A program made the position numbers and the translations under genes. Shown piece by piece: positions 1-17,321 of a DNA stretch of 32,000 nt (the stretch's first letter is position 1; each line of letters begins with the position of its first letter). The notes below the pieces were generated by a model, which saw nothing but the letters and a program-made list of their open reading frames with translations, had not been told where the DNA came from and did no database searches. The stretch covers positions 3,360,001 to 3,392,000 of the forward strand of contig NZ_CP065936.1 of assembly GCF_003367075.2 (NCBI RefSeq), read 5' to 3'. Source of the DNA: Cylindrospermopsis raciborskii Cr2010 (GTDB taxonomy: Bacteria; Cyanobacteriota; Cyanobacteriia; Cyanobacteriales; Nostocaceae).

Positions 1-1107
1 ATAGCCAACGAAATTCTTAACAAATCAGCTCATGTAATTAAACATAAACACCCTAATTGTCATGTAGTTTCCATTAATTGGGGTCCTTGGGATAGTGGTA
101 TGGTTTCTCCAGAATTACAGACAGCATTTGCACAACGAGGAATTAAAACCATTCCCCAAGAACTGGGTAGTAGTATCTTAGTTGATCAACTAAGAAATAG
201 TGATTCAACTATGACCCAAGTAGTAATTGGTAGTCCCTTAGTCTATATTCCTTCTACCTTGTCTAGTGAACTAAAAACCCATCAAATTACCCGTCAATTA
301 AAGTTAAACTATAACCCATTTTTACAGGATCATGTGATTGCGGGTAATCCTGTTCTTCCCGCAACTTGTGGACTGTCCTGGATATCTAGCAGTTGTGAAC
401 AACTCTATCCTGGTTTCCAAACTTTCCACTGTCCTAACTTTAAAGTCCTTAAAGGAATTGTTTTTGACCAAAATTCCCCCCATGAATATATTCTTGAAAT
501 TCAAGAAGTTGCTAAAATTGACAATCAAGAAATTCAGCTTGCGGGCAAAATTAGTAGTGTTACCAACCATGGAAAAATCAGATATCATTTTAGTAGCAAC
601 CTAATTTTGAAAAGACAAATTCCTTTAGCTGATAACTATGAACTTTTTAACCTAACCCAAGATGGTCAATTCCTAGCGAGCAATTCCTTACTATATCAAA
701 CTGGTGGTGGTAGTTTATTTCATGGTAATACTTTTCAAGGGGTAAAATCTGTGTTAAATATCAGTCCCGGTAAACTGACTATGAAATGTGAACTACCCGA
801 ACCCACATTATACCAACAGGGACAATTTAGAGTACAGACTCTTAACCCCTATATAGCAGATGTGCAGATACATTCTCTGTGGATTTGGACTCAACACTTT
901 CATCAAGTTGGTTGTTTACCATCAGAAATTGAAAATTTTGAACAATTTGCACCCGTTCCCTTTGGAGAAACGTTTTATGTAACTTGTGAAATCAAATCCA
1001 AAACCGAATCTTATGTAGTTGCTGATGTAATTACTCACAATCAAAAAGGACAAGTTTATAATCAGATGAAGGCATCAAAAGCTACAATCTTACCCAATAG
1101 CTACTAA
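1..1107 (+). CDS. C-terminal fragment of a PfaA/HglE-like multidomain secondary-lipid/polyketide synthase: end of a ketoreductase domain plus a PKS-type dehydratase. The 5' end lies outside the window.
   Basis: Frame 1 is open from nt 1, with no stop before the listed Met at 100. Translation of nt 1-99 gives ...HVVSINWGPWDSGMV, a typical KR C-terminal edge. A hot-dog DH follows with HxxxGxxxxP (LQDHVIAGNPVLP, His codon 331-333) and DxxxH (ADVQIH). Confidence 0.8.
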   Translation: MANEILNKSAHVIKHKHPNCHVVSINWGPWDSGMVSPELQTAFAQRGIKTIPQELGSSILVDQLRNSDSTMTQVVIGSPLVYIPSTLSSELKTHQITRQLKLNYNPFLQDHVIAGNPVLPATCGLSWISSSCEQLYPGFQTFHCPNFKVLKGIVFDQNSPHEYILEIQEVAKIDNQEIQLAGKISSVTNHGKIRYHFSSNLILKRQIPLADNYELFNLTQDGQFLASNSLLYQTGGGSLFHGNTFQGVKSVLNISPGKLTMKCELPEPTLYQQGQFRVQTLNPYIADVQIHSLWIWTQHFHQVGCLPSEIENFEQFAPVPFGETFYVTCEIKSKTESYVVADVITHNQKGQVYNQMKASKATILPNSY

Positions 1108-1275: not shown

Positions 1276-4083
1276 ATGCAGGAGTTAATAGAAAATCTAT
1301 TTCAGAAAATGGCAATTGTGGGGTTAGATTGCCTAGTGAGTGGTTCTCAGGAACTAGATAGTTTTGAACGTAGTATTTATGAAGGAAAGCAGAATTTTAC
1401 ACCTATTAACTATAATCTTGAGCCATCATGGAAAATTCCTTTACCACAGATAGAAAATTTATCACCACCACAAAAACTAATGTTAAAGGTGGCTGAGAAT
1501 ACTCTCAAAACTGCTAACTTAAGTCAAGAAACTCAAATAGCAGTGATATTGGTGAGTAGGTTCCAAAGTGACCACCAAAATAAATTGGCTAGTTATATTT
1601 CCCAGTTATGGAATGCAACAAGTCCAGCATTCGCTGAAGAAAAATCGGTCTTTTCAGCATTAGATTTAGCACAAAAACTACTCACTAAAAATCAAGTAAA
1701 TGCTGTTTTAATAGCAGCAATAGATTGGGATCACAAAAATTCTGAAAATTTTGAGACTCATACAGGTCAACAGACTCTCAGCTATGACCAAAATGCTACT
1801 AAGACTTTGTCAGGAGAAGGAATAGCAACAATAATTTTGCAACTGGAAGAAACGGCCAAACAACAAAATTCTCACATTTATGCAGTAATTGATGCTGTCA
1901 GTATGGTGGATCAGTATCCAGACCAAGCACAAGCAGTTACCCGCTGTTGTCAAGCAGCTTTTGAGATAGCAGAAGTTACAGCTCAAGATATTGGTTATAT
2001 AGAAGTTCATGCTAGTAGTATTGGGGAACAAGATGATGCGGAAGTTCAAGGTTTAATCACTGCTTACAAAACTCAAAAGTCTAATTTAACCTGTGCTTTA
2101 GGTAGTGTGAAGACTAATATTGGTGACACTCATATTGCATCAGGAATGATGAGTTTGATTAAAACTGCACTTTGTTTATATCATCGTTATATCCCAGCTG
2201 TTCCCCAATGGACTGGTGTGAAGAAATTAGATATTTGGCATGACACTCCTTTTTATTTTGCCACCCAATCCAAACCCTGGTTTTTAGAAATAAACACCTC
2301 TAAAAGAATAGCTGCTATTAACAGCATAGAAACTGACAGGAATATACATATAATTCTGTCAGAAACAAGCAGTGAACAAGAACGGAGTAGTAAATATTTG
2401 GCCCAAATGCCTTATTATCTATTTCCCATAGGTGGTGAAAATCAGTCCTCTCTGCTAGAAAAAATGATGAAATTGCAAGATTATCTAAAGCAAAATCATT
2501 CTTCTCTATCTCACCTAGCAAGGCAAACATTTCAAGAATTTCAAAATTACCAAAGATCCCAAAATACATACGCCATAAAAAACTATATTGTCGCAATTCT
2601 CGGCAGAAATTTAGAAGAATTAATCCAAGAAATAGACAGAGGTATTGAAGGAATAAAAGGTGCATTTGCTACTGGAAAAGATTGGCAAACTCCCCTAGGT
2701 AGTTATTTCACAATTAATCCCCTGGCCAAAAAAGGTAAAATAGCCTATGTTTATTCTGGCTCATTTACATCTTATATAGGATTAGGAAGAAGTCTGTTTC
2801 GACTATTCCCTAAAATTTACGATGACCGAGTAATTAATAATGTGTATGAACGGGTAGCTAACATCGAAAAAATTCTTTATCCTCGCACCATCAATAAGGT
2901 GACCAGTAGAGAATTAGAAGCCATAGAACAGCAACTAATAGATGACCCGGTAGCCATGCTAGAATCGGAGGTTGGCTTTGCTGGATTAATTACCGCAATT
3001 TTTAAAAACTATTTTCATCTCCAACCTCAGTGTGCTTTTGGTTATAGTCTGGGTGAAACTAGTATGATGTTAGCGCAAGGTATTTGGACTAGTTTTAAAA
3101 AAACCAGTGATTATTTAAATGCTTCCCCCCTATTTAAGACCGAACTTTCTGGACCAAAAAATGCTGTTCGTCAAGCTTGGGCATTACCCCTAGATGATAA
3201 TAACAAGAATCAAGATTTTTGGGGTAACTATATTGTTCTTTGTCCAGTTTCTCAGGTGAAAGAAGCAATCAAAGATGAAAATCGGGTTTATATTACTTTG
3301 ATTAATACACCAGATGAAGTAGTCATTGCTGGAGAAAAACAAGCCTGTCAAAGGGTGATTGAAAAACTTCAGTGTGATGCTTTTCCTGCGCCCATTGATC
3401 ATGTCATTCATTGTCCACCCATGCGATCGCAGTATGGAGAACTAGTGAAAATGAACACTTTGCCAATTCAACATATTCCGGGGATAACCTTTTACTCTGG
3501 TGCTAATTATGAACCATTTACCATAGACAGTGAAATTATTGGGAATAACATAGCAAAAAATCTTTGTTACCAACTGGATTTTCCTCGGTTAATTAACCGG
3601 GTTTATGATGACAACATTAGAATATTTATCGAAGTAGGGGTTGGTGGTAACTGTTCAAGATGGATTAGTTCAACCCTGAAGGAAAAAGAACATCTTGCTG
3701 TCTCTTTAAACAGAAGAGGTGTGGAAGACCACACTTCAATTGTGAGAGCTTTAGGTAGATTAGTTAGTCATCAAGTTTCCTTAGACCTATCACCTTTATA
3801 TGGTCTGACTAATATAGAACAGGTCAATTCTTATTCACCAACCCAATGGGATAAGAATCATGCTGTAAATTTACCAAAGTCGGCAAAAATCTTCAAGTCT
3901 ATTCTCCCCTATTCTTTGCAGTCTCAGTATAAAAAATTGAGTCAGAATCATGCAATGATAAATCAAGCCCATAGCCTTTTATTAAAATCTCGGCAAGTAG
4001 CATTCCAGCAAATGAGTTCTTTGATTGGGCAAAAAATAGAGGTTTATCAATGGAAAATTGACCAAGCTAATAGAATTAAATAG
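1276..4083 (+). CDS. PfaB/HglG-like subunit: non-condensing KS-like domain plus acyltransferase domain
   Basis: 935 aa with GGAGA 6 nt upstream of the ATG. The N-terminal half is KS-like, but the DTACSSS position reads EEKSVFSALDLA (no Cys). EVHASSIGEQDDAE keeps the first His. KTNIGDTH has Asp where the second His is expected (by-eye alignment). The C-terminal AT half has YVYSGSFTSY and the nucleophile elbow GYSLGE (Ser codon 3046-3048). Confidence 0.8.
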   Translation: MQELIENLFQKMAIVGLDCLVSGSQELDSFERSIYEGKQNFTPINYNLEPSWKIPLPQIENLSPPQKLMLKVAENTLKTANLSQETQIAVILVSRFQSDHQNKLASYISQLWNATSPAFAEEKSVFSALDLAQKLLTKNQVNAVLIAAIDWDHKNSENFETHTGQQTLSYDQNATKTLSGEGIATIILQLEETAKQQNSHIYAVIDAVSMVDQYPDQAQAVTRCCQAAFEIAEVTAQDIGYIEVHASSIGEQDDAEVQGLITAYKTQKSNLTCALGSVKTNIGDTHIASGMMSLIKTALCLYHRYIPAVPQWTGVKKLDIWHDTPFYFATQSKPWFLEINTSKRIAAINSIETDRNIHIILSETSSEQERSSKYLAQMPYYLFPIGGENQSSLLEKMMKLQDYLKQNHSSLSHLARQTFQEFQNYQRSQNTYAIKNYIVAILGRNLEELIQEIDRGIEGIKGAFATGKDWQTPLGSYFTINPLAKKGKIAYVYSGSFTSYIGLGRSLFRLFPKIYDDRVINNVYERVANIEKILYPRTINKVTSRELEAIEQQLIDDPVAMLESEVGFAGLITAIFKNYFHLQPQCAFGYSLGETSMMLAQGIWTSFKKTSDYLNASPLFKTELSGPKNAVRQAWALPLDDNNKNQDFWGNYIVLCPVSQVKEAIKDENRVYITLINTPDEVVIAGEKQACQRVIEKLQCDAFPAPIDHVIHCPPMRSQYGELVKMNTLPIQHIPGITFYSGANYEPFTIDSEIIGNNIAKNLCYQLDFPRLINRVYDDNIRIFIEVGVGGNCSRWISSTLKEKEHLAVSLNRRGVEDHTSIVRALGRLVSHQVSLDLSPLYGLTNIEQVNSYSPTQWDKNHAVNLPKSAKIFKSILPYSLQSQYKKLSQNHAMINQAHSLLLKSRQVAFQQMSSLIGQKIEVYQWKIDQANRIK

Positions 4084-4192
4084 GATCTATATCAAACAAG
4101 GGGGAGGAGTGGGTGGGAAGTATTAGCTCAATATTCTCCTGCTCGCAGGTTTCCCCAATCACTTACATCACTTACAACAAAGGTTTTCCACA

Positions 4193-5857
4193 ATGTTAGT
4201 CAGAGAAAATATCATCAATCTAGACATTAATCGAGATAATTATCTGAGAGTTTCTAATTTATTTATTAATCATCTTATTAACCATCGCCCATGGCAAGGT
4301 GATTTTAATACGGTTGCATTCGACGCAAAAGAAATCAAATCAAAGTTGAGACTCTTAGAAAAACCTTGTTATGTAGTCAGACATGAAAATAAAATCGGTA
4401 TTACCAATGAAGAAAGTGTATCTGGGGGTAGCACCCAGCTAGAAATGTTAATGACAGTTCCTTCCCTAACAACTGCACAACTAGGGGATGAAAATTTTCT
4501 CAAGTCTTATGGTGTAAAATATGCTTATATGACTGGAGCAATGGCCCAGGGAATAGCATCAGAAGAAATGGTAATTGCATTGGGGAGAGCGGGAATTTTA
4601 AGCGTATTTGGTGCAGGTGGTTTATCTCCCTCTCGTGTGGAAAAAGCCATTGCTAAAATTCAACATTCCCTAAATAAAAAACCTTACGGTTTTAACTTAC
4701 TCCATAGTCCTAGTGAACCAGCAATAGAACGACATAGCGTAGATTTGTACCTAAAACACCATGTGAAAGTAGTTGAAGCATCAGCCTTTTTAGATTTAAC
4801 TGACAACATAGTTTATTATCGAGCTGCGGGATTGAGTTTAAATTCAGCCAATGAAATTGAAATCCGAAATAAAGTTATTGCTAAAATTTCCCGTCAAGAG
4901 GTAGCAGCAAAATTTTTACATCCTGCTCCCACTCAAATTCTCAAACAACTAGTAGCACAAGGTTTAATTAGTGAACTACAAGCTAATCTTGCCAGTCAAA
5001 TTCCTATGGCCGATGATATCACGGTAGAAGCTGATTCGGGAGGACATACGGATAATCGTCCCCTAATTTGTTTATTACCTTCTATCTTGGAACTAAGAAA
5101 TGAAATTCAAAATCAATACAATTATAAACATCCAGTAAGAATTGGCGTAGCTGGGGGAATTTCCACACCTAAATCAGCTCTAGCTGCTTTTATTATGGGT
5201 GCTGCTTATGTTGTTACCGGTTCCATAAATCAATCTTGTATTGAAGCTGGAACTTCTGCACACACAAAGCAATTATTAGCCCAAGCTCAAATGGCTGATG
5301 TGATGATGGCTCCAGCAGCTGATATGTTTGAAATGGGTGTGAAATTACAAGTTCTCAAACGAGGAACTCTTTTTCCCCTCCGCGCTCAAAAATTATATGA
5401 GTTATACAAAACCTATCAATCAATAGAGGAAATTCCCGACTCAGAAAGAGATAAATTAGAAAAACAAGTTTTTAAAAAATCTTGGCAAGAAGTTTGGCAA
5501 GAGACAATTAATTATTTATCTCAAAGAAATCCAGAAAAGTTAACCAAAGCAGCAAACAATCCTAAATTGAAAATGGCATTAATTTTCCGTTGGTATTTAG
5601 GACTCTCTTCTCGTTGGTCTAATACTGGAGAAAAGGGTAGAGAAATTGATTATCAAATTTGGTGCGGACCAGCTATGGGTAGCTTTAATGATTGGGTGCG
5701 AGGTTCTTATTTAGCTGAAACTCAAAAACGTCAAGTTGTTGAAGTTGCTAACCATATTATGACGGGAGCAGCATTTCTATATCGTGTCCAAAACCTAAAA
5801 ATTCAAGGATTACAAATTCCCAATGAGTATACTCAATATATTCCAGAAAAACTCTAA
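4193..5857 (+). CDS. PfaD/HglD-family trans-acting enoyl reductase (FMN, nitronate-monooxygenase-like fold)
   Basis: 554 aa. MTGAMAQGIAS, VEADSGGHTDNRP and VAGGISTP are motifs I recognise from PfaD and trans-AT PKS enoyl reductases. It sits directly after the KS-like/AT gene, as in pfa and hgl loci. Confidence 0.85.
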   Translation: MLVRENIINLDINRDNYLRVSNLFINHLINHRPWQGDFNTVAFDAKEIKSKLRLLEKPCYVVRHENKIGITNEESVSGGSTQLEMLMTVPSLTTAQLGDENFLKSYGVKYAYMTGAMAQGIASEEMVIALGRAGILSVFGAGGLSPSRVEKAIAKIQHSLNKKPYGFNLLHSPSEPAIERHSVDLYLKHHVKVVEASAFLDLTDNIVYYRAAGLSLNSANEIEIRNKVIAKISRQEVAAKFLHPAPTQILKQLVAQGLISELQANLASQIPMADDITVEADSGGHTDNRPLICLLPSILELRNEIQNQYNYKHPVRIGVAGGISTPKSALAAFIMGAAYVVTGSINQSCIEAGTSAHTKQLLAQAQMADVMMAPAADMFEMGVKLQVLKRGTLFPLRAQKLYELYKTYQSIEEIPDSERDKLEKQVFKKSWQEVWQETINYLSQRNPEKLTKAANNPKLKMALIFRWYLGLSSRWSNTGEKGREIDYQIWCGPAMGSFNDWVRGSYLAETQKRQVVEVANHIMTGAAFLYRVQNLKIQGLQIPNEYTQYIPEKL

Positions 5858-7196
5858 ATATTTTTTTAATCCTGTCAATAAAAGACAATTGAGTAGTTTA
5901 GAAACTACTATGGAACTTCTCAACCAACGCGCTAAAACTTGGAATTTGGTTACTATTAGTCGCATTCGAGGCCATATCCAAAAACCAGTTTTGAGAGAAG
6001 CTCTAGATCTTTTGCAGTATGGTCATTTAGTTCTGAATTCTCATATTGTTACCCATCAGCATAATTTTCAAAATCGGTTTTATTTGCAAACAGGTACTAC
6101 AGAAGAAATACCTTTACGGATGGTAATTAATTCGGAGGAGAAACAATGGCAAGAAGTTGTTAATCAGGAAATGAATCAACCAATTGATAGTGGTAGATAC
6201 CTGATGCGAGTGGTACTAATTATTAATCGGGAAAACCCAAAGGTTAATTATCTAGTGACTACCCTACATCATGCAATTGCTGATGGGTTATCAAGTGTTA
6301 ATCTACATTCGGAAATATTCACCTATTATGAACAAATCACCTCCGGTAATATGTTAAACCCGGTTAGTACTTTACCCCCATTACCACCACCAGAAAAACT
6401 ATTGGGTCATTTACAAGGAGCAAAGTTAAATGGATGGATATTACTGTTAAAGATCGCCTGGGAGAAACTGACTAACCCTCCACAAACTTTAAAAGTGGAA
6501 AAATATGTTCCCATTTCCCAGAGGAACTCCCAAATAATTCATAGACAAATATTATCAGATACAGCTGAAAAGTTTTTTGCCCAATGTCGAGCAGAAAATG
6601 CTACGGTGCAGAGCGTCTTATCTGCTGCTATGCTATTGACAGTAGCTAAAAAAATTCTCAACCAGCAGCGTAAGTCCATTCGATTAAATTGTCTATCCTA
6701 CTTTGATTTAAGAAGACGGTTACAACCACCCATCAATGAACAGAATATTGGTCTATTAGCCACATCCCAGATGAGTTTTCACACTGTCACAACCAACACC
6801 TATTTTTGGGATCTGGCCAGGAGGATTAAACAAACCCTAGCAGCAAGTATCCACAGAGGGGATATTTTTAAAATGGTATTTCTTGCTAAACATCTGATTA
6901 ACTTTTGCTTTCTATTTCCTCATCAAATTGCTGCTAGTGTTTCCGTTTCTAACATTGGTAAGGTTAACATCCCTGGAATATATGGTGAATTACAACTAGA
7001 AGAAATCAGTTTTGCGGGTTCTCATGCACTATATGCAGGTATGTTTATCCTTCATGTTGCCACTTTTCAAGGCAAGATGTTATTAAATTTCGTCTTTTCC
7101 CAACCTTCCCTCAGTCAAGACACTATGGAAAAACTAGTGAATGAATTTATGGAAATGATTGAACAAATTTCCCATTTACCATCTCAGGTATCATGA
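5823..7196 (+). CDS. Stand-alone condensation-domain protein (HHxxxDG acyltransferase, VibH/PapA5-like architecture)
   Basis: 457 aa. The catalytic motif HHAIADG lies at codons 149-155 (nt 6267-6287). The size and N-terminal RQLSSLE...LL segment fit an NRPS C domain. The ATG at 5823 overlaps the upstream stop by 35 nt. An alternative TTG at 5886 cannot be excluded. Confidence 0.7.
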   Translation: MSILNIFQKNSKYFFNPVNKRQLSSLETTMELLNQRAKTWNLVTISRIRGHIQKPVLREALDLLQYGHLVLNSHIVTHQHNFQNRFYLQTGTTEEIPLRMVINSEEKQWQEVVNQEMNQPIDSGRYLMRVVLIINRENPKVNYLVTTLHHAIADGLSSVNLHSEIFTYYEQITSGNMLNPVSTLPPLPPPEKLLGHLQGAKLNGWILLLKIAWEKLTNPPQTLKVEKYVPISQRNSQIIHRQILSDTAEKFFAQCRAENATVQSVLSAAMLLTVAKKILNQQRKSIRLNCLSYFDLRRRLQPPINEQNIGLLATSQMSFHTVTTNTYFWDLARRIKQTLAASIHRGDIFKMVFLAKHLINFCFLFPHQIAASVSVSNIGKVNIPGIYGELQLEEISFAGSHALYAGMFILHVATFQGKMLLNFVFSQPSLSQDTMEKLVNEFMEMIEQISHLPSQVS

Positions 7197-7235
7197 ATTC
7201 AAGATTTTAATGATTAAGAAACTGGAGGTAAATAG

Positions 7236-7523
7236 ATGAGTCAAATGACTAAGCTAAATAGTGCTGGGGATATTGAACAATGGCTAGTTAACAACATTGC
7301 TTTTATATTAGGAGTAAATCCAGAAGAAATAGATATTAAACAACCTTTAGATAGTTACGGTTTAGATTCACAACAAGCTATGATTTTAGCAAGTAAAGCC
7401 GAAAAACTTTTGGGGTTTAAATTGTCCCTGATGTACTTGTGGTACTATCCCACCATTCAACAATTAGCACAACGATTAGCTCAAGAATTAGAAAATTCCT
7501 CCTCAGAAATATTGCAAATTTAA
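7236..7523 (+). CDS. Discrete acyl/peptidyl carrier protein (PP-binding)
   Basis: 95 aa. The phosphopantetheine attachment motif is DSYGLDSQQAM (Ser codon 7368-7370), followed by YPTIQQLAQRL as in PKS/NRPS carrier domains. GGAGG lies 7 nt upstream of the ATG. Confidence 0.8.
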   Translation: MSQMTKLNSAGDIEQWLVNNIAFILGVNPEEIDIKQPLDSYGLDSQQAMILASKAEKLLGFKLSLMYLWYYPTIQQLAQRLAQELENSSSEILQI

Positions 7524-7551
7524 GATTTTCCAGTTTTCCTCCTCTAAGACT

Positions 7552-7607
7552 GACACTGGGACTGAATGGAGGACTATACAATCCGTTCAGCCAAGTGTCT
7601 TTTTTTT
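7552..7607 (+). terminator. Rho-independent terminator or attenuator between the carrier-protein gene and the docking-domain gene
   Basis: Composite stem: gacact (7552-7557) pairs with agtgtc (7594-7599), gg (7559-7560) with cc (7591-7592), and ctgaatgga (7562-7570) with tccgttcag (7582-7590, one G-U). The loop is 11 nt. The stem is followed immediately by T8 (7600-7607). Confidence 0.65.
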
Positions 7608-7657
7608 CTCTCAGCTTTTTATCATTAATCACTTTTTTTCATATTGGAGACTTAGTC

Positions 7658-7819
7658 ATGAACGCATCGGAAATCTTAGCACTTCTAACTAAGCAAGGTG
7701 TGGAATTTTGGATCGAGAATCACCAACTAAATATCCGCTCTCCCAAAGGAATAATTACACCAGAAATGCAAGCGGAAATTGCTAGCCACAAAGGAGATAT
7801 TTTGGCCTTATTGCAAGAA
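7658..7819 (+). other. N-terminal beta-hairpin docking domain (TubC_N-like)
   Basis: EILALLTKQGVEFWIENHQLNIRSPKGIITPEMQAEIASHKGDILALL fits the TubC_N pattern ELLxxLxxxGVxLWxEGDxLRxxAPKGxLTPELxxxLxxxKxEILxxL almost position for position. Confidence 0.75.
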
Positions 7820-9535
7820 ATGGATATCTGTAGCAACTCTACCCCAGAAAATCCCATTTCTGGTATTAGTATACAAACCATTGGTAAATTGATTGGGGGT
7901 TTCACAAGTGAACTACCTATAGAATATCAACCCCCCATTATTAACCCACACATTATGGCTAAAAACCTCAGTGTCACCTTTAGACCCTTACCCAATGGGT
8001 ATGATAATCATAGAATTATTAAATTCCGTCAGGACTTAGCCATTAAATTAAAAAATTTGGGTGTTGCTGTGGTTCCTTGGCAAGATTCTATTAGGGACTT
8101 TTGTTATAGAATTAATGTTCCCATTGTTAATTGGCATTATTCTTTTACCATTAAGGGGGTAAGGTCAGAAATTGATGCAGTAATAGATGTAGCAAGGCCC
8201 AATTCATGGTTGAGAAAGTTGGGTATATTTGTCGCTGAAAGTATTTACACTTTATTTTATCGTTGGTTAATCAAGAAACAAAATATGTCTGTTGTACAAA
8301 TTGCTAGACTAAGTAGTTGGGCCGAAGACCATGCTGCTAAATACGTTGAAGATCCCACCAATACTCAAGTGATCATTCTTAGCGACATCGATGATAAATT
8401 TGTGAGTCCATTAACTCACTATCAAGAGAAAATTAGTATTGGGATTAACACCTTGATTCAAACGTTTTCTGAAATAGTAATTGGGGTGTCTAAAGAACAA
8501 ATCTCTATCCTAAATATGAATTTATCTGATTCTATTTTTCCTAGGACAGAAATTGATGATTTTATATTAAAATCCCTAATTCCTAAAATTTATGTTCCCA
8601 TTACCCCCCTATTAATGAATAGATTTGAACTGGGAGTCTATAATCCCTATCTATCTCCCTATGCTCATAAATTAGCAAAGTTAGGCAAGGAACTGACCTC
8701 AACAGGTTTGTTTCCACCAGGTTTTAAATTGGCGGAGGTGATTAAAAGAAAATCCCATAGGGATATAGTTAATGTTATCGTTAATGGGAGAACGGGGGTT
8801 TCCTATGGTTTTATAGCCTATATAGAACCACCTTCCTATGTGGGAGAAAGGGAAATAAGTGCCACCCAATGGGAAGATTTATTGGCAATTCCTGGATTGA
8901 ATAGTGATGAAGTGCGCAAAAATCAATCAGGTAGACGGTTTTTAAAAACACGGATTGGTGGAGATTATATATTTAAGCAAATTCCCGATATTTGGTTAGT
9001 TAGTTCCCGCTCAGGTTCCAATAAAACAGACCTGAGTCTGGAACAGGATGTTCTTCGCATTGGACTAACCAATAATTTACATCTCCAATTACCTCCAGCA
9101 CATAATTCCCACAAATCCGACATTAAACCTTCTTACGATATTTATGTCATGCTGGCAATTAGTTTGTCTGCTGCTTTATACGCACCAGAACTAATTGAAA
9201 ATGGAGCCCCCATCATTCACTTTCATGGTTATCCCGCTTTTGATTGGTTTCAAGAGGATGAATTTTGTTTTGGTGTTGATAATCCTTCTGTACCCTGTGG
9301 TACTTATGAGTCGGGTGTGTTTAATTTTCTAGGTCTTGCCAATTTCTCCGCTCAACCAACAAAACATATCAAACTAGTCAGTTTAATAGAACCAGACCAT
9401 GGTACTAATTTAATTGCTCGAGACACAGAATATTTAATTGATAGGTTGAAACATGGTTGTATCGCTGATAAAATTGAACTTGGTGGTCAGCATTTTGCTT
9501 CTTTAAGAACTAATTTGACCAGGAATATCCAATAA
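7658..9535 (+). CDS. TubC_N-type docking domain fused to a domain of about 570 aa of unknown function
   Basis: Start chosen at ATG 7658 (MNASEILALL...), 625 aa, with tGGAGa 8 nt upstream. The track ORF start at 7439 lies inside the ACP gene and spans the terminator. The rest is a long uninterrupted ORF with no motifs I can assign. It has no A-domain, C-domain (HHxxxDG), TE, reductase or methyltransferase signatures. Confidence 0.65.
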   Translation: MNASEILALLTKQGVEFWIENHQLNIRSPKGIITPEMQAEIASHKGDILALLQEMDICSNSTPENPISGISIQTIGKLIGGFTSELPIEYQPPIINPHIMAKNLSVTFRPLPNGYDNHRIIKFRQDLAIKLKNLGVAVVPWQDSIRDFCYRINVPIVNWHYSFTIKGVRSEIDAVIDVARPNSWLRKLGIFVAESIYTLFYRWLIKKQNMSVVQIARLSSWAEDHAAKYVEDPTNTQVIILSDIDDKFVSPLTHYQEKISIGINTLIQTFSEIVIGVSKEQISILNMNLSDSIFPRTEIDDFILKSLIPKIYVPITPLLMNRFELGVYNPYLSPYAHKLAKLGKELTSTGLFPPGFKLAEVIKRKSHRDIVNVIVNGRTGVSYGFIAYIEPPSYVGEREISATQWEDLLAIPGLNSDEVRKNQSGRRFLKTRIGGDYIFKQIPDIWLVSSRSGSNKTDLSLEQDVLRIGLTNNLHLQLPPAHNSHKSDIKPSYDIYVMLAISLSAALYAPELIENGAPIIHFHGYPAFDWFQEDEFCFGVDNPSVPCGTYESGVFNFLGLANFSAQPTKHIKLVSLIEPDHGTNLIARDTEYLIDRLKHGCIADKIELGGQHFASLRTNLTRNIQ

Positions 9536-9620
9536 ATAACTCAACGCACCCCATCTAAGTATAAGACTATAGATGGGTACTCAATTCAATAAGCAACTAG
9601 GAGAATAGAAATAGTATAAG

Positions 9621-10133
9621 CTATTGTTGAACTACTACAGGTGTACCTACACTAGCCCAGTTAAATATTAACTTAGCACGGTTAGGAGGGAGATTTATAC
9701 AACCATGACTTACCGGTGTACCAAAACGTTTATGCCAGTATGCTCCATGAATAGCATAACTACCATGATAATATAGAGTATAGGGCACATTGCCAATATT
9801 ATATCCCCTACCCCGCATGCGAGTAGTTTTATGTTTACTTTGAACCCTGAATCTACCCACAGGAGTGGGAGTTGACTTTTTACCAGAGGAAACTTTAAAT
9901 GTGTAGACGCGTCTTTTACCTTCCCAAGCAGTCAACTTTTGCTGTGATAGGTCCACCTGAATCCATCGCTCTGAAGATTTTTTAGGAATAGCTATAGCTA
10001 TATTCTGAGATGGTTTGTTTACCAGAGTTTGATCTGGTAAAGGAGTAAGAACACCAATGGTTAGGGTCAATAGTATGATCTTTAATCTATTTACCCAATT
10101 GAGATCATGTAGCTTGGACTTGTTCCTATTCAT
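9621..10133 (-). CDS. Secreted L,D-transpeptidase (YkuD domain)
   Basis: 170 aa with an N-terminal signal/anchor (LKIILLTLTIGVL). The catalytic motif is HGAYWHKRFGTPVSHGCINLP. Confidence 0.8.
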   Translation of the reverse strand: MNRNKSKLHDLNWVNRLKIILLTLTIGVLTPLPDQTLVNKPSQNIAIAIPKKSSERWIQVDLSQQKLTAWEGKRRVYTFKVSSGKKSTPTPVGRFRVQSKHKTTRMRGRGYNIGNVPYTLYYHGSYAIHGAYWHKRFGTPVSHGCINLPPNRAKLIFNWASVGTPVVVQQ

Positions 10134-10246
10134 GGGATGGTCCTCTAGTTTGTAGAATTCTGCTTTACATATATTTGAGTTAACCTTTTGAAAACTGCTT
10201 GTAACCCCATTCCCCCCAAGCTAATACTAGACTAATGCTTTCTAGG

Positions 10247-11509
10247 TTAAACTGCTGCTAGTTCACGGTATATCCGATCAACTTTGCTCTCTTCTATATC
10301 TCTAGCATAAATTTCGCAGGAATTGTTGGGACTTTCAATTAGTTTAACCTTGTGCAGTTTTGCTCCTAATTCTTCAATGGGCGATCGCACTACATTGGTA
10401 ATATAAACAGCAATATTTTCTGCAGTTGGTACAACCTCGGTAAAATAGGGGAGGTCTTGATTTAAGAAACTATGATCCATAGGTTCAATGACATAGTGTT
10501 GAATTATCTGATTTAATCCCACCAAATCAACACTCATTCCCGTGACTGAATCTATCTCCCCTTGAACCGTCACTTCCAAATAATAATTGTGTCCGTGACC
10601 ATTAATGCGAGAGCATTTGCCATAAATAGTCTGATTTTTCTCCAAACTAAGGGTAGGATCGGCCAACCGGTGTGCTGCGCTAAAACCCGTAGCTACACTG
10701 AAAAATATTTCTGAGTCCTTACCTTCATACTCTACCCACAAGTGGTCACTTTCAAATAATTTTACCCGGGACAATTTCACCCCCAGTTGACTAATGGGGA
10801 ATTGCAGCAAATCACTCATGTATCGGGCAATATTTTCCGTAGTAGGAACTATATGGGATGTAGAAAAGTAGGGAATATCTTCATTAATACAGGAATGGTC
10901 AAATAATTCCAGGATCTCCCGTTCTACAATTTCATGTAAACAGCCAAGGTCCACAATCATTCCCGTGCGTCCATCCATTTCTCCTTCCACAGTCACTTCT
11001 AAATGATAATTATGTCCATGGGTACGGGTACATTTGCCATATTTTTCTGCACTTAGATTGGGTGCTAACCGATGTGCAGCGCTGAAATGACTTCTCACGG
11101 TTAAGGAACTTTTTTCCCCTTCATATTCTGTCCACAGTTGGGGATGTTCAAATAGCTGCACGCGCACCAAGGGTAAATGAGGTGCCAGACGGTTCCAAAT
11201 TACCCTAGCAATATTCTCCGTGGTGGGTAGGGTGGCTTGAAATTCCTCCCACACCTCATTGAGGTAAGAAAAGTCCAGCTCGCTGGTAACTTCACTCTTA
11301 ATTACCTGTTTCACATCAGATAGATTAAGTACCATTCCATATTCATCCAGTTCACCCGACATGGAAATGAATAGCACGTAATTATGTCCATGTCCAGGAA
11401 ATTTCGCACACAGACCAAATTTTTCCACATTTTGCGCTTCACCAAGTTCTGGCAACCAATACCGACGACTTGCCGAAAATTGGGCGCGCCTATTTATGAT
11501 ACATTCCAT
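10247..11509 (-). CDS. Triple-tandem 6-pyruvoyl-tetrahydropterin synthase/QueD (COG0720, T-fold) fusion protein
   Basis: 420 aa made of three units of about 132 aa: nt 11117-11509, 10721-11116 and 10304-10720. Each has Cys-(x3 or x5)-HGHNY and P(T/-)T(E/A)ENIA. FSAAHRL and DH are present in units 2 and 3 only. Confidence 0.8.
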   Translation of the reverse strand: MECIINRRAQFSASRRYWLPELGEAQNVEKFGLCAKFPGHGHNYVLFISMSGELDEYGMVLNLSDVKQVIKSEVTSELDFSYLNEVWEEFQATLPTTENIARVIWNRLAPHLPLVRVQLFEHPQLWTEYEGEKSSLTVRSHFSAAHRLAPNLSAEKYGKCTRTHGHNYHLEVTVEGEMDGRTGMIVDLGCLHEIVEREILELFDHSCINEDIPYFSTSHIVPTTENIARYMSDLLQFPISQLGVKLSRVKLFESDHLWVEYEGKDSEIFFSVATGFSAAHRLADPTLSLEKNQTIYGKCSRINGHGHNYYLEVTVQGEIDSVTGMSVDLVGLNQIIQHYVIEPMDHSFLNQDLPYFTEVVPTAENIAVYITNVVRSPIEELGAKLHKVKLIESPNNSCEIYARDIEESKVDRIYRELAAV

Positions 11510-11593
11510 GATTGCACTAAGAACGGATTTTAATATTTCTTTATCTTTGACTGCTTTCAGTGTAGTCTAATTTGTTGCAGGTTGACAACTTAC

Positions 11594-11624
11594 CAAGAAA
11601 AAGGGTAGGACTTTATTCCTACCC
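11594..11624 (-). terminator. Rho-independent terminator of tkt
   Basis: The minus-strand RNA reads GGGUAGGA-AUAAAG-UCCUACCC followed by UUUUUCUU. The stem is 11603-11610 paired with 11617-11624. It lies 30 nt downstream of the tkt stop. Confidence 0.7.
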
Positions 11625-11653
11625 TGCATATAACCATTAAATATCTCAGGTGA

Positions 11654-13666
11654 CTAACCTAACAATGCTTGAGCTTTAGCTACCACATTGTCAACGGTAA
11701 ATCCAAATTTCTCCAGACAAATGCCACCTGGCGCAGAAGCACCAAATCTGTCAATACTAACAGCATCACCTTCAATTCCAATATATTTGTGCCAGCCAAA
11801 ACTGCTTCCAGCTTCTACAACTAGACGCTTGGTTACTGCCTTTGGTAACACCGACTCTTTATAGGAACTATCTTGCTCTTCAAACAAGTCTGTAGAAGGC
11901 ATAGAAACTACGCGCACCTTATTACCTGTAGCAGTTAGTTTTTCAGCAGCACCTACACACAGGCTTAATTCCGAACCTGTGCCAATAAGGATGATATCTG
12001 GTGTACCTTGAGAATCTAAAATGATATAACCACCCTTGGTCACACCTTCCACAGATGTACCTGCTAAGTTGGGAACATTTTGTCTAGTGAAAGCCAACAG
12101 GGTAGGAGCATTTTGTTTAGCTCTGGTAATAGCTACAGTGTAAGCTCCAGAAGATTCATTGCCATCAGCAGGACGAATCACTGTCAGGTTAGGAATCGCA
12201 CGAAGAGAAGCTAAGGTTTCAATCGGTTGGTGGGTTGGACCATCTTCCCCCTGACCAATGGAGTCGTGAGTCATTACCCAAATTACTCCAGCTTCAGACA
12301 AAGCAGACAGGCGAATAGCAGCCCGCATATAGTCAGTGAAAATTAGGAAGGTCGCACCATAAGGAATTAAACCTGAGCCATGTAAAGCCATGCCATTACA
12401 GATGGCACCCATAGCATGTTCTCTGACCCCGAAGTGAATATTACGGTTTTGGAATTGACCCTTTTGGAAGTCTCCTTCACCCTTAATTTCCGTTAGGTTG
12501 GAGTGGGTGAGGTCAGCAGAACCACCAATCAGCTCTGGTAAAACCCCAGCCAATTTATTCAGACAGGTTTCCGAATGCTTCCGGGTGGGTAATGCTTTGT
12601 CTGCTGCTGTGTAGGTGGGAAGAACTTGATTCCAACCATCGGGCAATTTACCACTGACCAGACGTTCAAATTCTGCTGCTTCTTGGGGATATTTAGCTTT
12701 GTAGTCTGCAAAAGCCTTATTCCATTCCTTCTCATAATCAGCACCACGACCTACTGCTTTACCTAGGTGACTAATTACATCTTGGGGAACCACAAAAGGT
12801 TCATATTCCCAACCTAGGTTTTTGCGGGTTAAAGCTACTTCATCACCGCCCAAAGCCGCACCATGAACACCCGCTGTATTGGCCTTATTAGGAGAACCAT
12901 AACCAATGGTAGTTGTTACCTTAATCATGGTTGGTTTGTCCTTAACCGACTTTGCTGATTCTATAGCTGCTGCGATCGCATTTATGTCGGTATTACCATT
13001 TTCCACATGCAGGACGTGCCATCCATAAGCTTCAAAACGTTTGGAAACATCCTCAGTAAAAGCAACATCTGTGGAGCCATCGATGGAGATATGGTTATCG
13101 TCATAGAGAGCAATTAGCTTACCTAACCCGTAGTGACCAGCCAAGGAAGCTGCTTCACCGGAAACACCTTCCATATTACATCCATCACCAAGGATAACAT
13201 AAGTGTAGTGGTCTACAATAGTGGATCCGGGTTTGTTAAATTTAGCAGCTAGGTGAGCTTCCGCCATAGCCAAACCAACTGCATTGGCAATTCCCTGACC
13301 CAAAGGACCAGTAGTTACCTCTACACCAGCTGTTTCAAAATTTTCTGGGTGTCCAGGAGTTCTAGAACCCCATTGACGAAATTGTTTAATATCCTCAATG
13401 GTGACGCTATCATAACCTGTAAGATACAGCATAGCATACTGCAACATACAACCATGACCAGCGGATAAGACAAAACGATCCCTATTAAACCAGCGAGGAT
13501 TTTTAGGGTTGTAGCGCATGAACTTATCCCACAGCACAAAAGCCATAGGAGCTGCTCCCATGGGGAGTCCAGGGTGTCCAGACTTAGATTTTTCTATAGC
13601 ATCAACAGCTAAGAAACGAATTGAGTTAATACAAAGTTCTTCGAGGGATTGGGTTACAACAGCCAT
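11654..13666 (-). CDS. tkt: Transketolase
   Basis: 670 aa. Motifs: [20 protein letters not shown] (TPP site), [18 protein letters not shown]. Confidence 0.95.
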
Positions 13667-13835
13667 AATCTCTTGTTTTTAAGGATGGGTGAGGAATTTT
13701 TGATAGCTTGGCTTTTTGCTTGGGGGACATTATTTAATGATCCCAGCACTTATATCATCCCATTTTGGCTGTAGATGGACAAGCGGGATCTGATGAGTTT
13801 TTAGTAGTTCTTGGTGATGAATCTGAGCTGGGTTC

Positions 13836-15083
13836 CTAATGGTACTTCCTAAAGGCAATAGTCACATTATGACCTCCAAAACCAAAGGAGTTAGATAGGG
13901 CCACTTCTACCCTTACTTCACGGCTTTTATGGGGCACATAATCTAAATCACACCCCGGATCTGGATTATCCAAGTGTATTGTAGGGGGGACTCGATCATT
14001 GGCGATCGCCAGAATTGTAGCCACAGCTTCTATTCCTCCCGAACCACCCAATAGATGACCGGTCATAGATTTAGTGGAACTAATTGGGATATTATAAGCA
14101 TAATCACCCAAAGCTTTTTTAATAGCCGCCGTTTCTGTGACATCATTAGCTGGGGTGCTAGTACCATGAGCATTGATATAACTAATCATAGCTGGTGTTA
14201 GTTCACCATCTCTCATGGCCAATTCCATAGCTTTAGCAGCACCCAAACCACCTGGTACAGGAGAGGTAATATGATAAGCATCACAGGTCATGCCATAGCC
14301 TACCATTTCCCCATATATTCGCGCACCCCTAGTCAAAGCATGTTCTAACTCTTCCAGAATTAGAATTCCTGAACCTTCCCCCATTACAAACCCATCCCTG
14401 TCCCGATCAAATGGACGACAGGCCGTTTCAGGATCATTTTTAGTAGATAAAGCCCTAGCAGCAGCAAATCCAGCCACAGAAAGAGGTGTAATTGCTGCCT
14501 CCGTACCCCCACAAATCATTGCTTGGGCATATCCATTTTGAATAATCCGAAAAGCATCACCAATAGCATTAGACCCAGCAGCACAGGCAGTAACCGCACA
14601 GGAATTGGGACCTTTAGCACCCGTATGGATTGCTGTTAACCCTGCGGCCATATTGGCAATCATCATTGGGATCATAAATGGACTACAGCGATCTGGACCT
14701 TTATTCAGGTACACAGTCTGCTGATCCTCCAACACCTTAATTCCCCCCACGCCCGAACCGATCATGACACCTATATGTTCGGCATTGAGGTCATTGATAA
14801 CTAATTGCGCGTCCGAAAGAGCTTGTTTGGCCGCCCCAATGCCAAATTGAGCAAACCGGTCTGTACGTTTAGCTTCCTTCTTCTCCATGTAATCACAGGG
14901 GTCAAATTTCTTCACCTCTCCCGCGATTCGGCAGTCGTGCTTGGACGGATCAAATGCTGTGATGTAGTCTATCCCATTCCTTCCGTCTAAGAGTCCTTCC
15001 CAATATTCCCAGGGTGTTTTACCAATAGGTGTAATCGCGCCAACACCTGTTACAACAACGCGATTACGTTTATAGTCTGTCAT
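13836..15083 (-). CDS. fabF: 3-oxoacyl-ACP synthase II
   Basis: 415 aa. Motifs: active-site VTACAAGSNAIG, NAHGTSTPANDVTE, SSTKSMTGHLLGGSG, NSFGFGGHN. It lies directly downstream of acpP. Confidence 0.95.
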   Translation of the reverse strand: MTDYKRNRVVVTGVGAITPIGKTPWEYWEGLLDGRNGIDYITAFDPSKHDCRIAGEVKKFDPCDYMEKKEAKRTDRFAQFGIGAAKQALSDAQLVINDLNAEHIGVMIGSGVGGIKVLEDQQTVYLNKGPDRCSPFMIPMMIANMAAGLTAIHTGAKGPNSCAVTACAAGSNAIGDAFRIIQNGYAQAMICGGTEAAITPLSVAGFAAARALSTKNDPETACRPFDRDRDGFVMGEGSGILILEELEHALTRGARIYGEMVGYGMTCDAYHITSPVPGGLGAAKAMELAMRDGELTPAMISYINAHGTSTPANDVTETAAIKKALGDYAYNIPISSTKSMTGHLLGGSGGIEAVATILAIANDRVPPTIHLDNPDPGCDLDYVPHKSREVRVEVALSNSFGFGGHNVTIAFRKYH

Positions 15084-15100
15084 GATTCAGTATCCAAGAC

Positions 15101-15367
15101 CTATAATGCGGACTCAGGAGCATTATTTATGATGTAATCTACTGCTTCCTGAACTGTAGTAATTTTTTCAGCAGCTTCATCGGGAATTTCCACCCCAAAT
15201 TCCTCTTCCAGGGCCATTACCAATTCCACCGTATCCAAAGAATCCGCCGACAAGTCATTGGCAAAACTTGCCTCGGGGATAACTGTTTCAGCATCAACAC
15301 TTAGTTGGTCAACCACAATTTTCTTTACTCTCTGAAAAGTTTTGTCAAAAATTTCATTCGCGCTCAT
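15101..15367 (-). CDS. acpP: Acyl carrier protein (type II FAS)
   Basis: [20 protein letters not shown]. Start placed at the internal Met (MSANEIF..., ATG complement at 15365-15367). The 16-codon extension in the track is atypical for AcpP. Confidence 0.9.
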
Positions 15368-15483
15368 ATAACAAACATTCCTTAACTTCTTGCTAGATCT
15401 GCTCACCGTGGACAATTTTTCCTGAGCATATACATCTTATCGGAAAGGGTGGTAACTAGCTAGTATTTTTCCAACTATCCACG

Positions 15484-15492
15484 TGCTATAAT
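15484..15492 (+). promoter_or_regulatory. Extended -10 element (TGcTATAAT), candidate promoter for the HdrB-like gene
   Basis: tgcTATAAT at 15484-15492, about 55 nt upstream of ATG 15548, in the divergent acpP spacer. The -35 is poor (tatttt). Confidence 0.3.
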
Positions 15493-15547
15493 TTCGCATA
15501 AGGCAATCCCCTGGGGAAACGCCAATTATTTATTGCTTCTTACACTC

Positions 15548-16438
15548 ATGCTCAAATACGCCTACTACCCTGGTTGTGTAGCCCAGGGCGCTTGTCGGGA
15601 GCTGGATATTTCCACTCGTGCTCTGACCCAATCTTTAGGGATCGAACTGGTAGAAATTAAAAAGGCCGCCTGCTGCGGTTCAGGAACCTTTAAGGAAGAT
15701 TCCCAATTGTTAGAGGACACTGTTAATGCTCGCAATATAGCTTTAGCAGAGGAATTAAACCTACCTTTGTTAACCCACTGTAGCACTTGCCAGGGTGTGA
15801 TCGGTCGTGTAAATGAACGACTTAAACACTGTCAAGAAAATAATCCGGTCTATTTAAACCAAGTTAATGGACTATTAACAAAAGAAAACTGTTCCCCTTA
15901 CCAGGGTAACACAGAAGTAAAACACATTTTATATGCTCTGATTCAAGACTATGGTTTGGAGAAAATAGGTCAGCGTCTGACTCGTAAATTAAGTAATCTT
16001 AAATGTGCTGCATTTTATGGTTGTTATTTACTGCGTTCAGAAAAACATCCTAATGAAGATCCCTTTCGCCCTGAAGGAATGGAAAACATATTTAGGGTTT
16101 TAGGTGCTACCCCAATATATTATCGTGGTAGAAATCAATGTTGTGGTTGGCCCCTTTCCAGCTACGGGACAAATGAGTCTTTTAAAATGGCAGGAATGCA
16201 CATTGAAGAAGCTATATCCCAAGGTGCGGATTGTATTGTGACACCTTGTCCCCTTTGTCATTTGAACCTAGATTCTCGTCAACCAGAAATAGAAAAAGTG
16301 ATATCGAAAAAACTACAACTGCCTATTTTACATTTACCCCAATTAATTGCCCTAGGTCTGGGAATTAGTCCCCAATTACTAGGTTTGGAACGTCATATTG
16401 TTTCCACTAAACCGGTTTTGGAAAAATTAGGAATCTGA
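15548..16438 (+). CDS. Cysteine-rich CCG-domain Fe-S protein (HdrB / type-E succinate dehydrogenase SdhE-like)
   Basis: There are two CCG-type motifs (KKAACCGSG...HCSTCQG and NQCCGWP...CPLCHLN). Start placed at ATG 15548 (MLKYAYYPGC) rather than TTG 15533. Confidence 0.7.
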   Translation: MLKYAYYPGCVAQGACRELDISTRALTQSLGIELVEIKKAACCGSGTFKEDSQLLEDTVNARNIALAEELNLPLLTHCSTCQGVIGRVNERLKHCQENNPVYLNQVNGLLTKENCSPYQGNTEVKHILYALIQDYGLEKIGQRLTRKLSNLKCAAFYGCYLLRSEKHPNEDPFRPEGMENIFRVLGATPIYYRGRNQCCGWPLSSYGTNESFKMAGMHIEEAISQGADCIVTPCPLCHLNLDSRQPEIEKVISKKLQLPILHLPQLIALGLGISPQLLGLERHIVSTKPVLEKLGI

Positions 16439-16444
16439 TTACTA

Positions 16445-17236: not shown

Positions 17237-17321
17237 AATAAATTATGATTTAAGGTAAGTAAGGTAAGCAAGTCGATTTGGTATGTCCCCATTGTACCAC
17301 CAAAAATGCTACCTATTACCA

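Follow-up and report, generated by a model that had tools for sequence, protein, structure and literature searches.

We analyzed a 32,000-nucleotide stretch of Cylindrospermopsis raciborskii Cr2010 (contig NZ_CP065936.1, positions 3,360,001 to 3,392,000 of the forward strand; hereafter the window) and within it a gene of an uncharacterized family, here called gene X, whose 625-residue product joins an N-terminal docking domain to a two-domain core. Gene X is the final gene of an operon, the gene beyond it being convergent, and occupies the place usual for a chain-release enzyme in a lipid assembly line. The operon genes in the window all lie on the plus strand, in the order ketoreductase-dehydratase (KR-DH), ketosynthase/chain-length factor-acyltransferase (KS/CLF-AT), PfaD, PapA5-like condensation (C) domain protein, acyl carrier protein (ACP), and X. 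Their features, in window coordinates, are as follows.

1..1107, plus strand: 3′ part of the KR-DH gene, HglF-like and like the C terminus of PfaA, open from nucleotide 1 (PS-DH and PKS_DH_N in Pfam; PfaA C-terminus likeness in NCBIfam)
1276..4083, plus strand: KS/CLF-AT protein of the PfaB family, HglC-like (TIGR02816, 166 bits against a cut-off of 144; Ketoacyl-synt_C)
4193..5857, plus strand: PfaD-type enoyl reductase (TIGR02814, E 4e-204; PfaD_N, NMO, and FabD_helical_ins in Pfam)
5823..7196, plus strand: PapA5-like condensation/O-acyltransferase domain protein (PapA_C 4.8e-19 and Condensation 1.7e-13 in Pfam; motif HHAIADG)
7236..7523, plus strand: free-standing ACP of 95 residues with a GLDS phosphopantetheine site (PP-binding, E 1.7e-13)
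7491..7520, plus strand: C-terminal tail of the ACP, ENSSSEILQI-COOH, candidate short linear motif (SLiM) for the docking domain of X, from tail conservation
7646..7649, plus strand: Shine-Dalgarno-like GGAG, 8 nt before the ATG, read from the sequence
7658..9535, plus strand: gene X, docking domain plus two-domain core, 625 aa
7670..7819, plus strand: TubC_N or beta-hairpin docking domain (bHD) of X, residues 5-54 (Pfam, PDB, and Foldseek matches)
7943..8647, plus strand: N-terminal alpha/beta core domain of X, residues ~96-330, modeled with alternating strands and helices; N288, K310, and P317 near-invariant
8648..9493, plus strand: putative C-terminal catalytic domain of X, residues ~331-612, with a class II aldolase-like fold by Foldseek

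The mechanical open reading frame (ORF) of gene X opens at GTG 7439. Because this codon overlaps the ACP gene and every homologue in the alignment opens at the invariant methionine (M1) encoded at 7658, the start of X was set at 7658. The original prediction, made from the letters of the DNA, had read the first ~54 residues as a TubC_N docking domain, and this was borne out by three lines of evidence. TubC_N (PF18563) was the only Pfam match on X, covering residues 5-54 (profile positions 3-52 of 52) at 54.7 bits, above the cut-off of 26, and E 1.1e-14; phmmer against PDB sequences returned docking domains alone, namely those of AerJ (9.3e-7), TubC (1.9e-6), and EpoB; and Foldseek superposed the N terminus of X on 8aqq with a template modeling (TM) score of 0.84-0.85 and a root-mean-square deviation (rmsd) of 0.8-0.9 Å, with further matches to 2jug and 6ews/6ewt/6ewu at probability 1.0. 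In the AlphaFold2 (AF2) model, the docking domain is predicted to comprise helix 3-12, strands 16-20 and 23-27, and helices 35-43 and 45-59, and it is followed by a low-confidence linker (residues ~55-70), with a predicted local distance difference test (pLDDT) value below 50 at residues 58-62. Orthologues are entered in databases as "hypothetical", as "TubC N-terminal docking domain-related", or, mistakenly, as "non-ribosomal peptide synthase", a name that many carry at NCBI; at JGI, the 625-residue orthologue P0040 is a "desulfoferrodoxin (superoxide reductase-like protein)". No domain found in X supports either of the last two names.

Beyond the docking domain, Pfam found no match in X, NCBIfam none anywhere in the protein at E<=1, and no PDB sequence matched the core by phmmer or by a profile of 65 family sequences. 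The claim that the ~570 residues after the docking domain belong to no recognizable family therefore holds at the sequence level and needs amending at the level of structure, where the C-terminal domain probably adopts a very divergent class II aldolase-like fold. The reported lack of condensation, adenylation-core, and Rossmann motifs was likewise confirmed, as regular expressions for HHxxxDG, SGTTGxPK, YRTGD, and GxGxxG found none in X, and the sole GxSxG string is indeed GVSYG (residues 380-384, nt 8795-8809). In the AF2 model, GVSYG is followed by a beta-strand (385-389) and not by a helix, and it therefore does not form the nucleophile elbow of an alpha/beta-hydrolase.

Several familiar enzyme classes were accordingly tried and rejected for the core. 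An alpha/beta-hydrolase thioesterase (TE; PF00975) lacks a Pfam match in X, is at odds with the strand after GVSYG, and has no counterpart among the Foldseek matches, which include no hydrolase. Neither the condensation domain of nonribosomal peptide synthetases (NRPS; PF00668) nor an adenylate-forming enzyme (PF00501) matched X in Pfam; the condensation motif was not found by regular expression, nor were SGTTGxPKG and YRTGD. For a Rossmann reductase or an FkbH-like loader, no supporting motif, hidden Markov model (HMM) match, or fold match was found. The Foldseek matches of X to EpoB and 6cgo concern the docking domain (6cgo_A, 70 columns, rmsd 3.2 Å), as longer alignments to these entries have an rmsd above 20 Å and low probability; a match of our first model to 5t7z covers 51 columns.

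The superfamily alignment (65 sequences, 27% mean identity; residue numbers are those of X) contains 15 invariant residues, R378, G384, S452, G453, K456, D464, S492, D494, H521, H523, G539, C547, E578, H581, and G582, all of which fall in the C-terminal domain. The motifs around them are listed below.

8789..8812, plus strand: R378-T-G-V-S382-Y-G384-F385, which holds GVSYG; R378 and G384 invariant, G380, S382, and F385 nearly so (RxGxSxGF)
9008..9025, plus strand: R451-S452-G453-S-N-K456; S452, G453, and K456 invariant; paired by hhalign with P-T/S-G of FucA/AraD
9128..9139, plus strand: P491-S492-Y-D494; S492 and D494 invariant; paired by hhalign with PSSE of FucA and PSSD of AraD
9218..9226, plus strand: H521-F-H523, candidate metal ligands; both histidines invariant, closing strand 517-522; paired with FucA H92/H94 in a global hhalign alignment that is not robust
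9296..9298, plus strand: C547, in a PCG or SCS motif; invariant
9389..9403, plus strand: E578-P-D-H581-G582; E578, H581, and G582 invariant, at a beta-hairpin turn between strands 573-578 and 582-587; H581-G582 paired with FucA H155-G156 by global hhalign

Across the 92 X-bearing loci, these motifs are intact save in one (L088, discussed below), with a single-motif miss of the regular expression in L013 and in L085/L086.

An AF2 model built with 28 close homologues reached a moderate pLDDT of 75, and one built with the 65-sequence alignment reached a pLDDT of 91.4 and a predicted TM score of 0.88. In the latter, the docking domain (1-59) and a flexible linker precede two core domains, an alpha/beta N-domain at ~96-330 and a C-domain at ~331-612. 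The N-domain gave no significant fold match in Foldseek, the weak flavodoxin-like or ribokinase-like resemblances being at E>0.1. For the C-domain, the leading PDB matches were these.

Ranks 1-7: L-rhamnulose-1-phosphate aldolase RhaD (1gt7), E from 4.5e-4, probability 1.0, TM on target ~0.48
Rank 8: L-ribulose-5-phosphate 4-epimerase AraD (1jdi), E 4.6e-3, probability 1.0, TM on target 0.52
Rank 13: decarboxylase HMPDdc (2z7b), E 5.0e-2, probability 0.95, TM on target 0.45

The poorer first model had matched AraD, RhaD, YgbL, and pyruvic oxime dioxygenase, which belong to the same fold family. The sensitive searches, including the AlphaFold and Foldseek check proposed with the original prediction, assigned the core to no well-characterized family and so do not refute the prediction; they brought out a remote fold-level likeness of the C-terminal ~290 residues to class II aldolases. 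These matches support a resemblance of the modeled C-terminal domain to the class II aldolase fold, with the secondary-structure elements in the same order as in the class II aldolase superfamily (PF00596). Identity to its members (RhaD, AraD, FucA, HMPDdc, YgbL/OtnC, pyruvic oxime dioxygenase, NovR, and TqaM) is ~10%, and X differs from them by an insertion of ~55 residues, an extra N-terminal domain of ~235 residues, the docking domain, and a presumed acyl-ACP substrate in place of a sugar phosphate.

In their order along the sequence, the invariant motifs of X follow the hallmark motifs of FucA, AraD, and RhaD. The FucA and AraD sequences used were confirmed against the PDB. The mapping was first made by eye, and one global hhalign run gave the same mapping, which is suggestive.

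RSGxxK...D of X against PTG / PSG...D of FucA/AraD
PSYD of X against PSSE / PSSD of FucA/AraD
HFH of X against HNH / HTH of FucA/AraD
VPC of X against IPC of FucA/AraD
DHG of X against HHG / SHG of FucA/AraD

The HxH...H triad binds Zn or Fe in FucA, RhaD, and AraD, and its positions are invariant in an alignment of the three. The gap between H523 and H581 of X is 58 residues, against 61 between H94 and H155 of FucA. We infer that a three-histidine metal site has plausibly been kept in X.

Relatives of X were found in 201 species-level genomes; among the 80 loci listed, most are from Nostocales and a few from outside, e.g., Symploca. The genomic context was surveyed at 84 loci, 83 of which have sufficient upstream DNA for an ACP count. 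The original prediction would have been refuted if homologues never stood beside genes of polyketide synthase (PKS) or fatty acid synthase type, and they almost always do: a same-strand ACP lies within 2.5 kb upstream of X at all 83 cyanobacterial loci and immediately adjoins it in 65, PfaD is present at 66/72 loci, and the remaining loci are other PKS lines. A C domain occurs at 67/83 loci and was not detected at 16/83, and the order varies (C-ACP-X at 40, ACP-C-X at 17, and ACP-X-C at 10). In the five C-less Pfa-type loci scanned, X is followed by a short-chain dehydrogenase/reductase (SDR; L073, L083, L084, and L066) or by a glyoxalase-family protein (L058). As ACP-X is constant and C is variable or missing, ACP-X is the core unit and C is accessory.

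The extreme C terminus of the ACP, ...RLAEEL.xSxSE[IT][FL][QE][IL]-COOH, is kept in ~60 distinct ACP sequences. Beta-hairpin docking domains bind a SLiM at the C terminus of a carrier protein (PMC9113145), and from its conservation the ACP tail is a candidate SLiM ligand of the docking domain of X.

A variant island was observed in Fischerella thermalis (L003/L004), where a 305-residue ORF, a KASIII-like protein, an SBBP-repeat protein, and a CylC-like halogenase are inserted between PfaD and the ACP, and where the C domain, an extended SDR, and a DUF2141 protein come after X. This arrangement suggests that the Fischerella island makes a halogenated product variant.

In the window, Pfam and NCBIfam place the C domain at 5823-7196 and the ACP at 7236-7523, in agreement with the earlier statement that X directly follows a C domain and a free-standing ACP. 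The PapA5-like protein also matches NF006787 (PapA5) in NCBIfam at 2.4e-21, under that model's cut-off. Its ORF start overlaps the end of PfaD by 35 nt (5823-5857), which reflects either translational coupling or a true C-domain start further downstream. The KR-DH gene runs off the window start, and its orthologue at L001 is a 567-residue KR+DH protein. The window cluster contains no adenylation (A) domain, fatty acyl-AMP ligase (FAAL), or FkbH.

The operon belongs to the hgl-like island type, of which the window shows the 3′ part. The assignment is based on near-identity and shared order with Raphidiopsis brookii D9 and on the KR-DH, KS/CLF-AT, and PfaD genes in the window: X is 96% identical to a D9 protein, and at the D9 locus (L071) the genes come in the same order and the neighbors are 91-96% identical. 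A 2025 study of heterocyte-glycolipid genes described the hgl-like island as a compact paralogous Pfa-like cluster with homologues of HglE/F/G/C/A and without homologues of hglB, hglD, and hglT; the island is widespread in heterocytous cyanobacteria, is the sole island left in the non-heterocytous R. brookii D9, is not tied to heterocyst glycolipid production, and has an unknown product (PMC11804610). The C, ACP, and X genes were not treated in that study, because only Anabaena hgl homologues were tracked. Equating the operon with the "HglE2" cluster of Anabaena was rejected, since PKS-NRPS genes border the HglE2 or Type G clusters (PMC3098273, PMC13291983).

X also occurs in assembly lines of other kinds. 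At L068, a modular PKS finishes with a KS-AT-DH-ER-KR-ACP module (ER, enoyl reductase), its stop codon is overlapped by gene X, and neither a TE nor any release enzyme besides X is present. The L079 line (1893-21335) runs through FAAL, fatty-acid desaturase, ACP, an AurF/CylC-like protein, KS/AT, ACP, X, SDR, and a GT28 glycosyltransferase resembling monogalactosyldiacylglycerol (MGDG) synthase, and continues with an SDR, a GMC oxidoreductase, Glf (UDP-galactopyranose mutase), a methyltransferase, and two further GT28 genes; the scanned ORFs yielded no TE, thioester reductase (TR), or C domain. This cluster looks like an uncharacterized glycolipid pathway. Similar contexts around a paralogous ACP-X pair were seen at L075, L078, and L082.

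Type I PKS/NRPS thioesterases, like X, stand directly after the last carrier protein, and the two are nearly mutually exclusive: a TE probe matched 2/92 X-bearing loci (L074 and L088). The sole fusion of the two carries a degenerate X. At L088 (7667-10180), genes for a PKS, PfaD, a fatty-acid desaturase, and an ACP precede the one for P0136, an 837-residue protein that consists of TubC_N, an X part, and a thioesterase. The X part retains 35% identity, yet all six conserved motifs are lost (H521 to R, H523 to P, H581 to R, C547 to P, S492 to F, and the RSG..K motif altered), so that from its residues it is apparently a pseudo-enzyme adaptor. X is apparently inactivated exactly where a TE is fused, which would be expected if X normally does the job of the TE. 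In fold, X is unlike PF00975, having no alpha/beta-hydrolase fold and no Ser-His-Asp elbow.

The core of X is not confined to the docked form. An exhaustive search with residues 60-625 returned 132 representative clusters, many members of which are ~500-550 residues long and have no docking domain; no Pfam family is assigned to proteins of the X superfamily. One stand-alone homologue is from Candidatus Campbellbacteria. At L085, L089, L094, and L095, and partly at L093, an X-like gene forms a recurring trio with a PlsC-like acyltransferase (PF01553) and a HisKA_7TM kinase, with gaps of 3 to 162 nt or overlaps, often downstream of an ORF of ~156-161 residues; other stand-alone homologues have different contexts. 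The hosts of the trio are uncultured bacteria of Patescibacteria type with low GC content, and such bacteria are thought to lack fatty-acid synthesis of their own. The X core thus stands beside an assembly-line ACP and beside a PlsC-like acyltransferase, which links it to acyl-group metabolism in two unrelated settings, and suggests that the trio is a lipid-handling module.

The original suggestion that X is a carrier-protein-dependent enzyme gains support from the conserved ACP tail, the 15 invariant residues, the position of X after the last ACP in PKS lines whose scanned ORFs showed no TE, TR, or C domain, and the TE-fused pseudo-enzyme. As to its reaction, we tentatively favor a docked, probably metal-dependent chain-offloading enzyme, and we infer metal binding, the roles of individual residues, and offloading itself as follows. 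The docking domain would bind the ACP tail and so bring the two-domain core to the phosphopantetheine-tethered acyl thioester. A divalent metal held by H521, H523, and H581, together with D494 and/or E578, would polarize the carbonyl of the thioester or beta-keto-thioester; the acyl-S-ACP bond would next be cut by C547 or by a metal-activated nucleophile, and the chain would leave by hydrolysis (accompanied by decarboxylation in the case of a beta-keto chain) or by transfer to an acceptor. The released lipid might be processed by the PapA5-like C domain in this operon, or by the adjacent SDR in C-less clusters.

A number of observations weigh against chain offloading by an aldolase-like enzyme. 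The likeness to class II aldolases is at a borderline TM score of 0.45-0.52 with ~10% identity, and we know of no class II aldolase-fold enzyme that acts as a thioesterase or acyltransferase. At the sequence level, the PF00596 HMM did not match X, matched 1/65 superfamily members at the noise level of E 0.2 (Pfam, E<=10), and an aldolase HMM scored real sequences the same as shuffled controls. Comparison by hhalign with an aldolase profile consisting almost wholly of Enterobacteriaceae FucA, AraD, and RhaD (Neff 2.7) gave P values of 0.02 (local), 0.014 (sub-region), and 0.005 (global) at a probability of 2-3%, a block-shuffle control equaled the real local score in 4/150 trials, and the motif-colinear global alignment shifted once insert columns were stripped. 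Against the single FucA sequence, the X family scored a probability of 0.15%, with HWHG set against the FucA HHG in a different register. Because the hhalign comparison was non-significant and the HMM scores equaled those of shuffled controls, homology to PF00596 is not claimed from sequence. The gene contexts add four further points: the C domain of the window cluster could itself perform release; at L074, a TE-like gene lies close to an intact X; the pseudo-enzyme fused to a TE stands for one cluster only; and in Symploca (L066, 7881-9251) a 457-residue NAD_binding_4 gene ("male sterility" or thioester-reductase-like) lies directly upstream of ACP-X, so that at least one lineage combines a reductase with an intact X.

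Other reactions and roles were weighed against the same evidence. Within the offloading view, a special case that we regard as rather improbable is that X is an ACP-dependent acyltransferase moving the chain onto a metal- and phosphate-bound C3 acceptor of the dihydroxyacetone phosphate (DHAP) or glycerol-3-phosphate type; this would tie together the retained motifs that hhalign sets against the aldolase phosphate pocket, the SDR next to X, whose role could resemble that of an acyl-DHAP reductase, the L079 cluster with its three MGDG-synthase-like glycosyltransferases, and the conserved pairing with a PlsC-like acyltransferase in Patescibacteria. It is possible, though unlikely, that X is instead an on-carrier tailoring enzyme performing metal-enolate chemistry on a tethered 3-oxo- or 3-hydroxy-acyl chain, with release left to the PapA5-like C domain; epimerization, dehydration, decarboxylation, retro-aldol/aldol C-C chemistry, and O2-dependent oxidation (cf. 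pyruvic oxime dioxygenase and NovR/CloR) would all come into question. Enolate, decarboxylase, and dioxygenase chemistry is what the fold family does, as the matches to HMPDdc, YgbL, and pyruvic oxime dioxygenase illustrate, and NovR and TqaM are natural-product enzymes with a class II aldolase fold in the PDB. The C domain found at most X loci suits this reading, the SDR that often follows X is consistent with a carbonyl-bearing product, and tailoring enzymes that bear a beta-hairpin docking domain have precedent in the halogenase AerJ (8aqq; PMC9113145). However, the fully reducing last module of L068 (DH-ER-KR) leaves no beta-carbonyl to chelate and makes X the sole release candidate, the scanned ORFs of L079 offer no other releasing domain, and the loss of motifs exactly at the TE fusion fits replacement by a release enzyme better than it fits a lost tailoring step.

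Distinctly improbable, in our estimate, is that X loads the free-standing ACP without ATP and so replaces the missing A domain of a C-A-T module (T, thiolation domain). A phosphorylated C3 metabolite (e.g., DHAP) would be converted to a hydroxyacyl thioester via C547 or the phosphopantetheine thiol, and the ester-forming PapA5-like C domain would then acylate the C3 unit with the long chain. Canonical class II aldolases take DHAP or ketose phosphates, and their P-T/S-G and PSSE/PSSD motifs form the phosphate pocket; S452-G453 and S492 are invariant where hhalign sets these motifs, and the basic residues R378 and K456 are invariant as well, as is C547. The C-ACP-X order at 40 loci, the lack of A domain, FAAL, and FkbH from the window cluster, and the NCBIfam names by which PapA5-type C domains form esters also speak for a loader. 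Yet the ACP of L088, L079, and L068 ends a PKS module or lacks a C partner and so has to bear the entire chain, the C domain may be absent and differs in position between loci, the AT of the KS/CLF-AT protein could load the ACP, and the chemistry is speculative, with no precedent found. We give very little credence to X being a non-enzyme, i.e., a docked scaffold, a lipid-binding or transfer protein, or an adaptor to membrane or export machinery. The TE-fused version persists without the conserved motifs, showing a structural or adaptor value of the fold, and hgl-type islands include exporter genes (PMC11804610); against this, 15 polar or catalytic-type residues (among them three His, Cys, Asp, Glu, Arg, Lys, and Ser) are invariant at a mean identity as low as that of the superfamily, and the motifs are intact in nearly all X-bearing loci.

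Compared with known docking systems, X is familiar in its recruitment and new in what is recruited. Enacyloxin Bamb_5915, a bHD-C protein acting with the carrier protein Bamb_5917 (6cgo), and the AerJ halogenase (8aqq) have, like X, an N-terminal bHD of ~50 residues and a flexible linker; in such systems, as for X, docking is to a small free-standing carrier protein whose extreme C terminus forms a conserved tail of <15 residues, and the enzyme acts in trans at the end of the assembly line. The partner of X is the ACP of a lipid line resembling a polyunsaturated fatty acid synthase, versus an NRPS peptidyl carrier protein in known bHD systems. Partner types reported for bHDs are C, epimerization, cyclization, TE, methyltransferase, thioester reductase, and halogenase (PMC9113145); the two-domain X core (~530 residues) matches none of them, so that recruitment by bHD and SLiM is known and the recruited core is not reported among bHD partners. 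We searched the literature for the X gene family, for TubC-fused enzymes of unknown type, and for class II aldolase-like enzymes acting in PKS lines, and saw no characterization. In the same organisms, HglB (ACP-thioester reductase) and HglT (glycosyltransferase) act, like X, at the tail end of a paralogous Pfa-like synthase (PMC11804610). The hgl-like island carries C, ACP, and X in place of hglB, hglD, and hglT, and X is without an NAD(P)-binding motif.

The remainder of the window consists of housekeeping genes, with no tRNA and no Rfam match. Two features of it were recorded. A 420-residue ORF on the minus strand (10247-11509) is a triple tandem of PTPS/QueD-like stretches (Pfam E 1.4e-97, 3 stretches), which is an unusual fusion, and fabF and acpP (13836-15415, minus strand) are encoded on the opposite strand, only ~4-6 kb from where the hgl-like operon ends, with a transketolase between.

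To the enzymes recruited through beta-hairpin docking domains, X would add a catalytic fold that is new among them. If X releases chains, as we tentatively favor, it would represent a thioesterase-independent release mechanism that is usable in PKS engineering. Transfer to a C3 acceptor, if true, would be the work of a class unrelated to PlsB, PlsY, PlsC, or C domains, on a scaffold derived from class II aldolases, and would predict an unusual very-long-chain glycerolipid from hgl-like islands. The same core beside a PlsC-like acyltransferase in Patescibacteria hints at an unrecognized lipid-handling family beyond cyanobacteria. Among the tail-end parts of the cluster, X and its ACP vary least, which makes X the natural point of entry to the product of the island. 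Found constantly at the tail end of a lipid cluster that is widespread in cyanobacteria, the enzyme is a strong experimental target.

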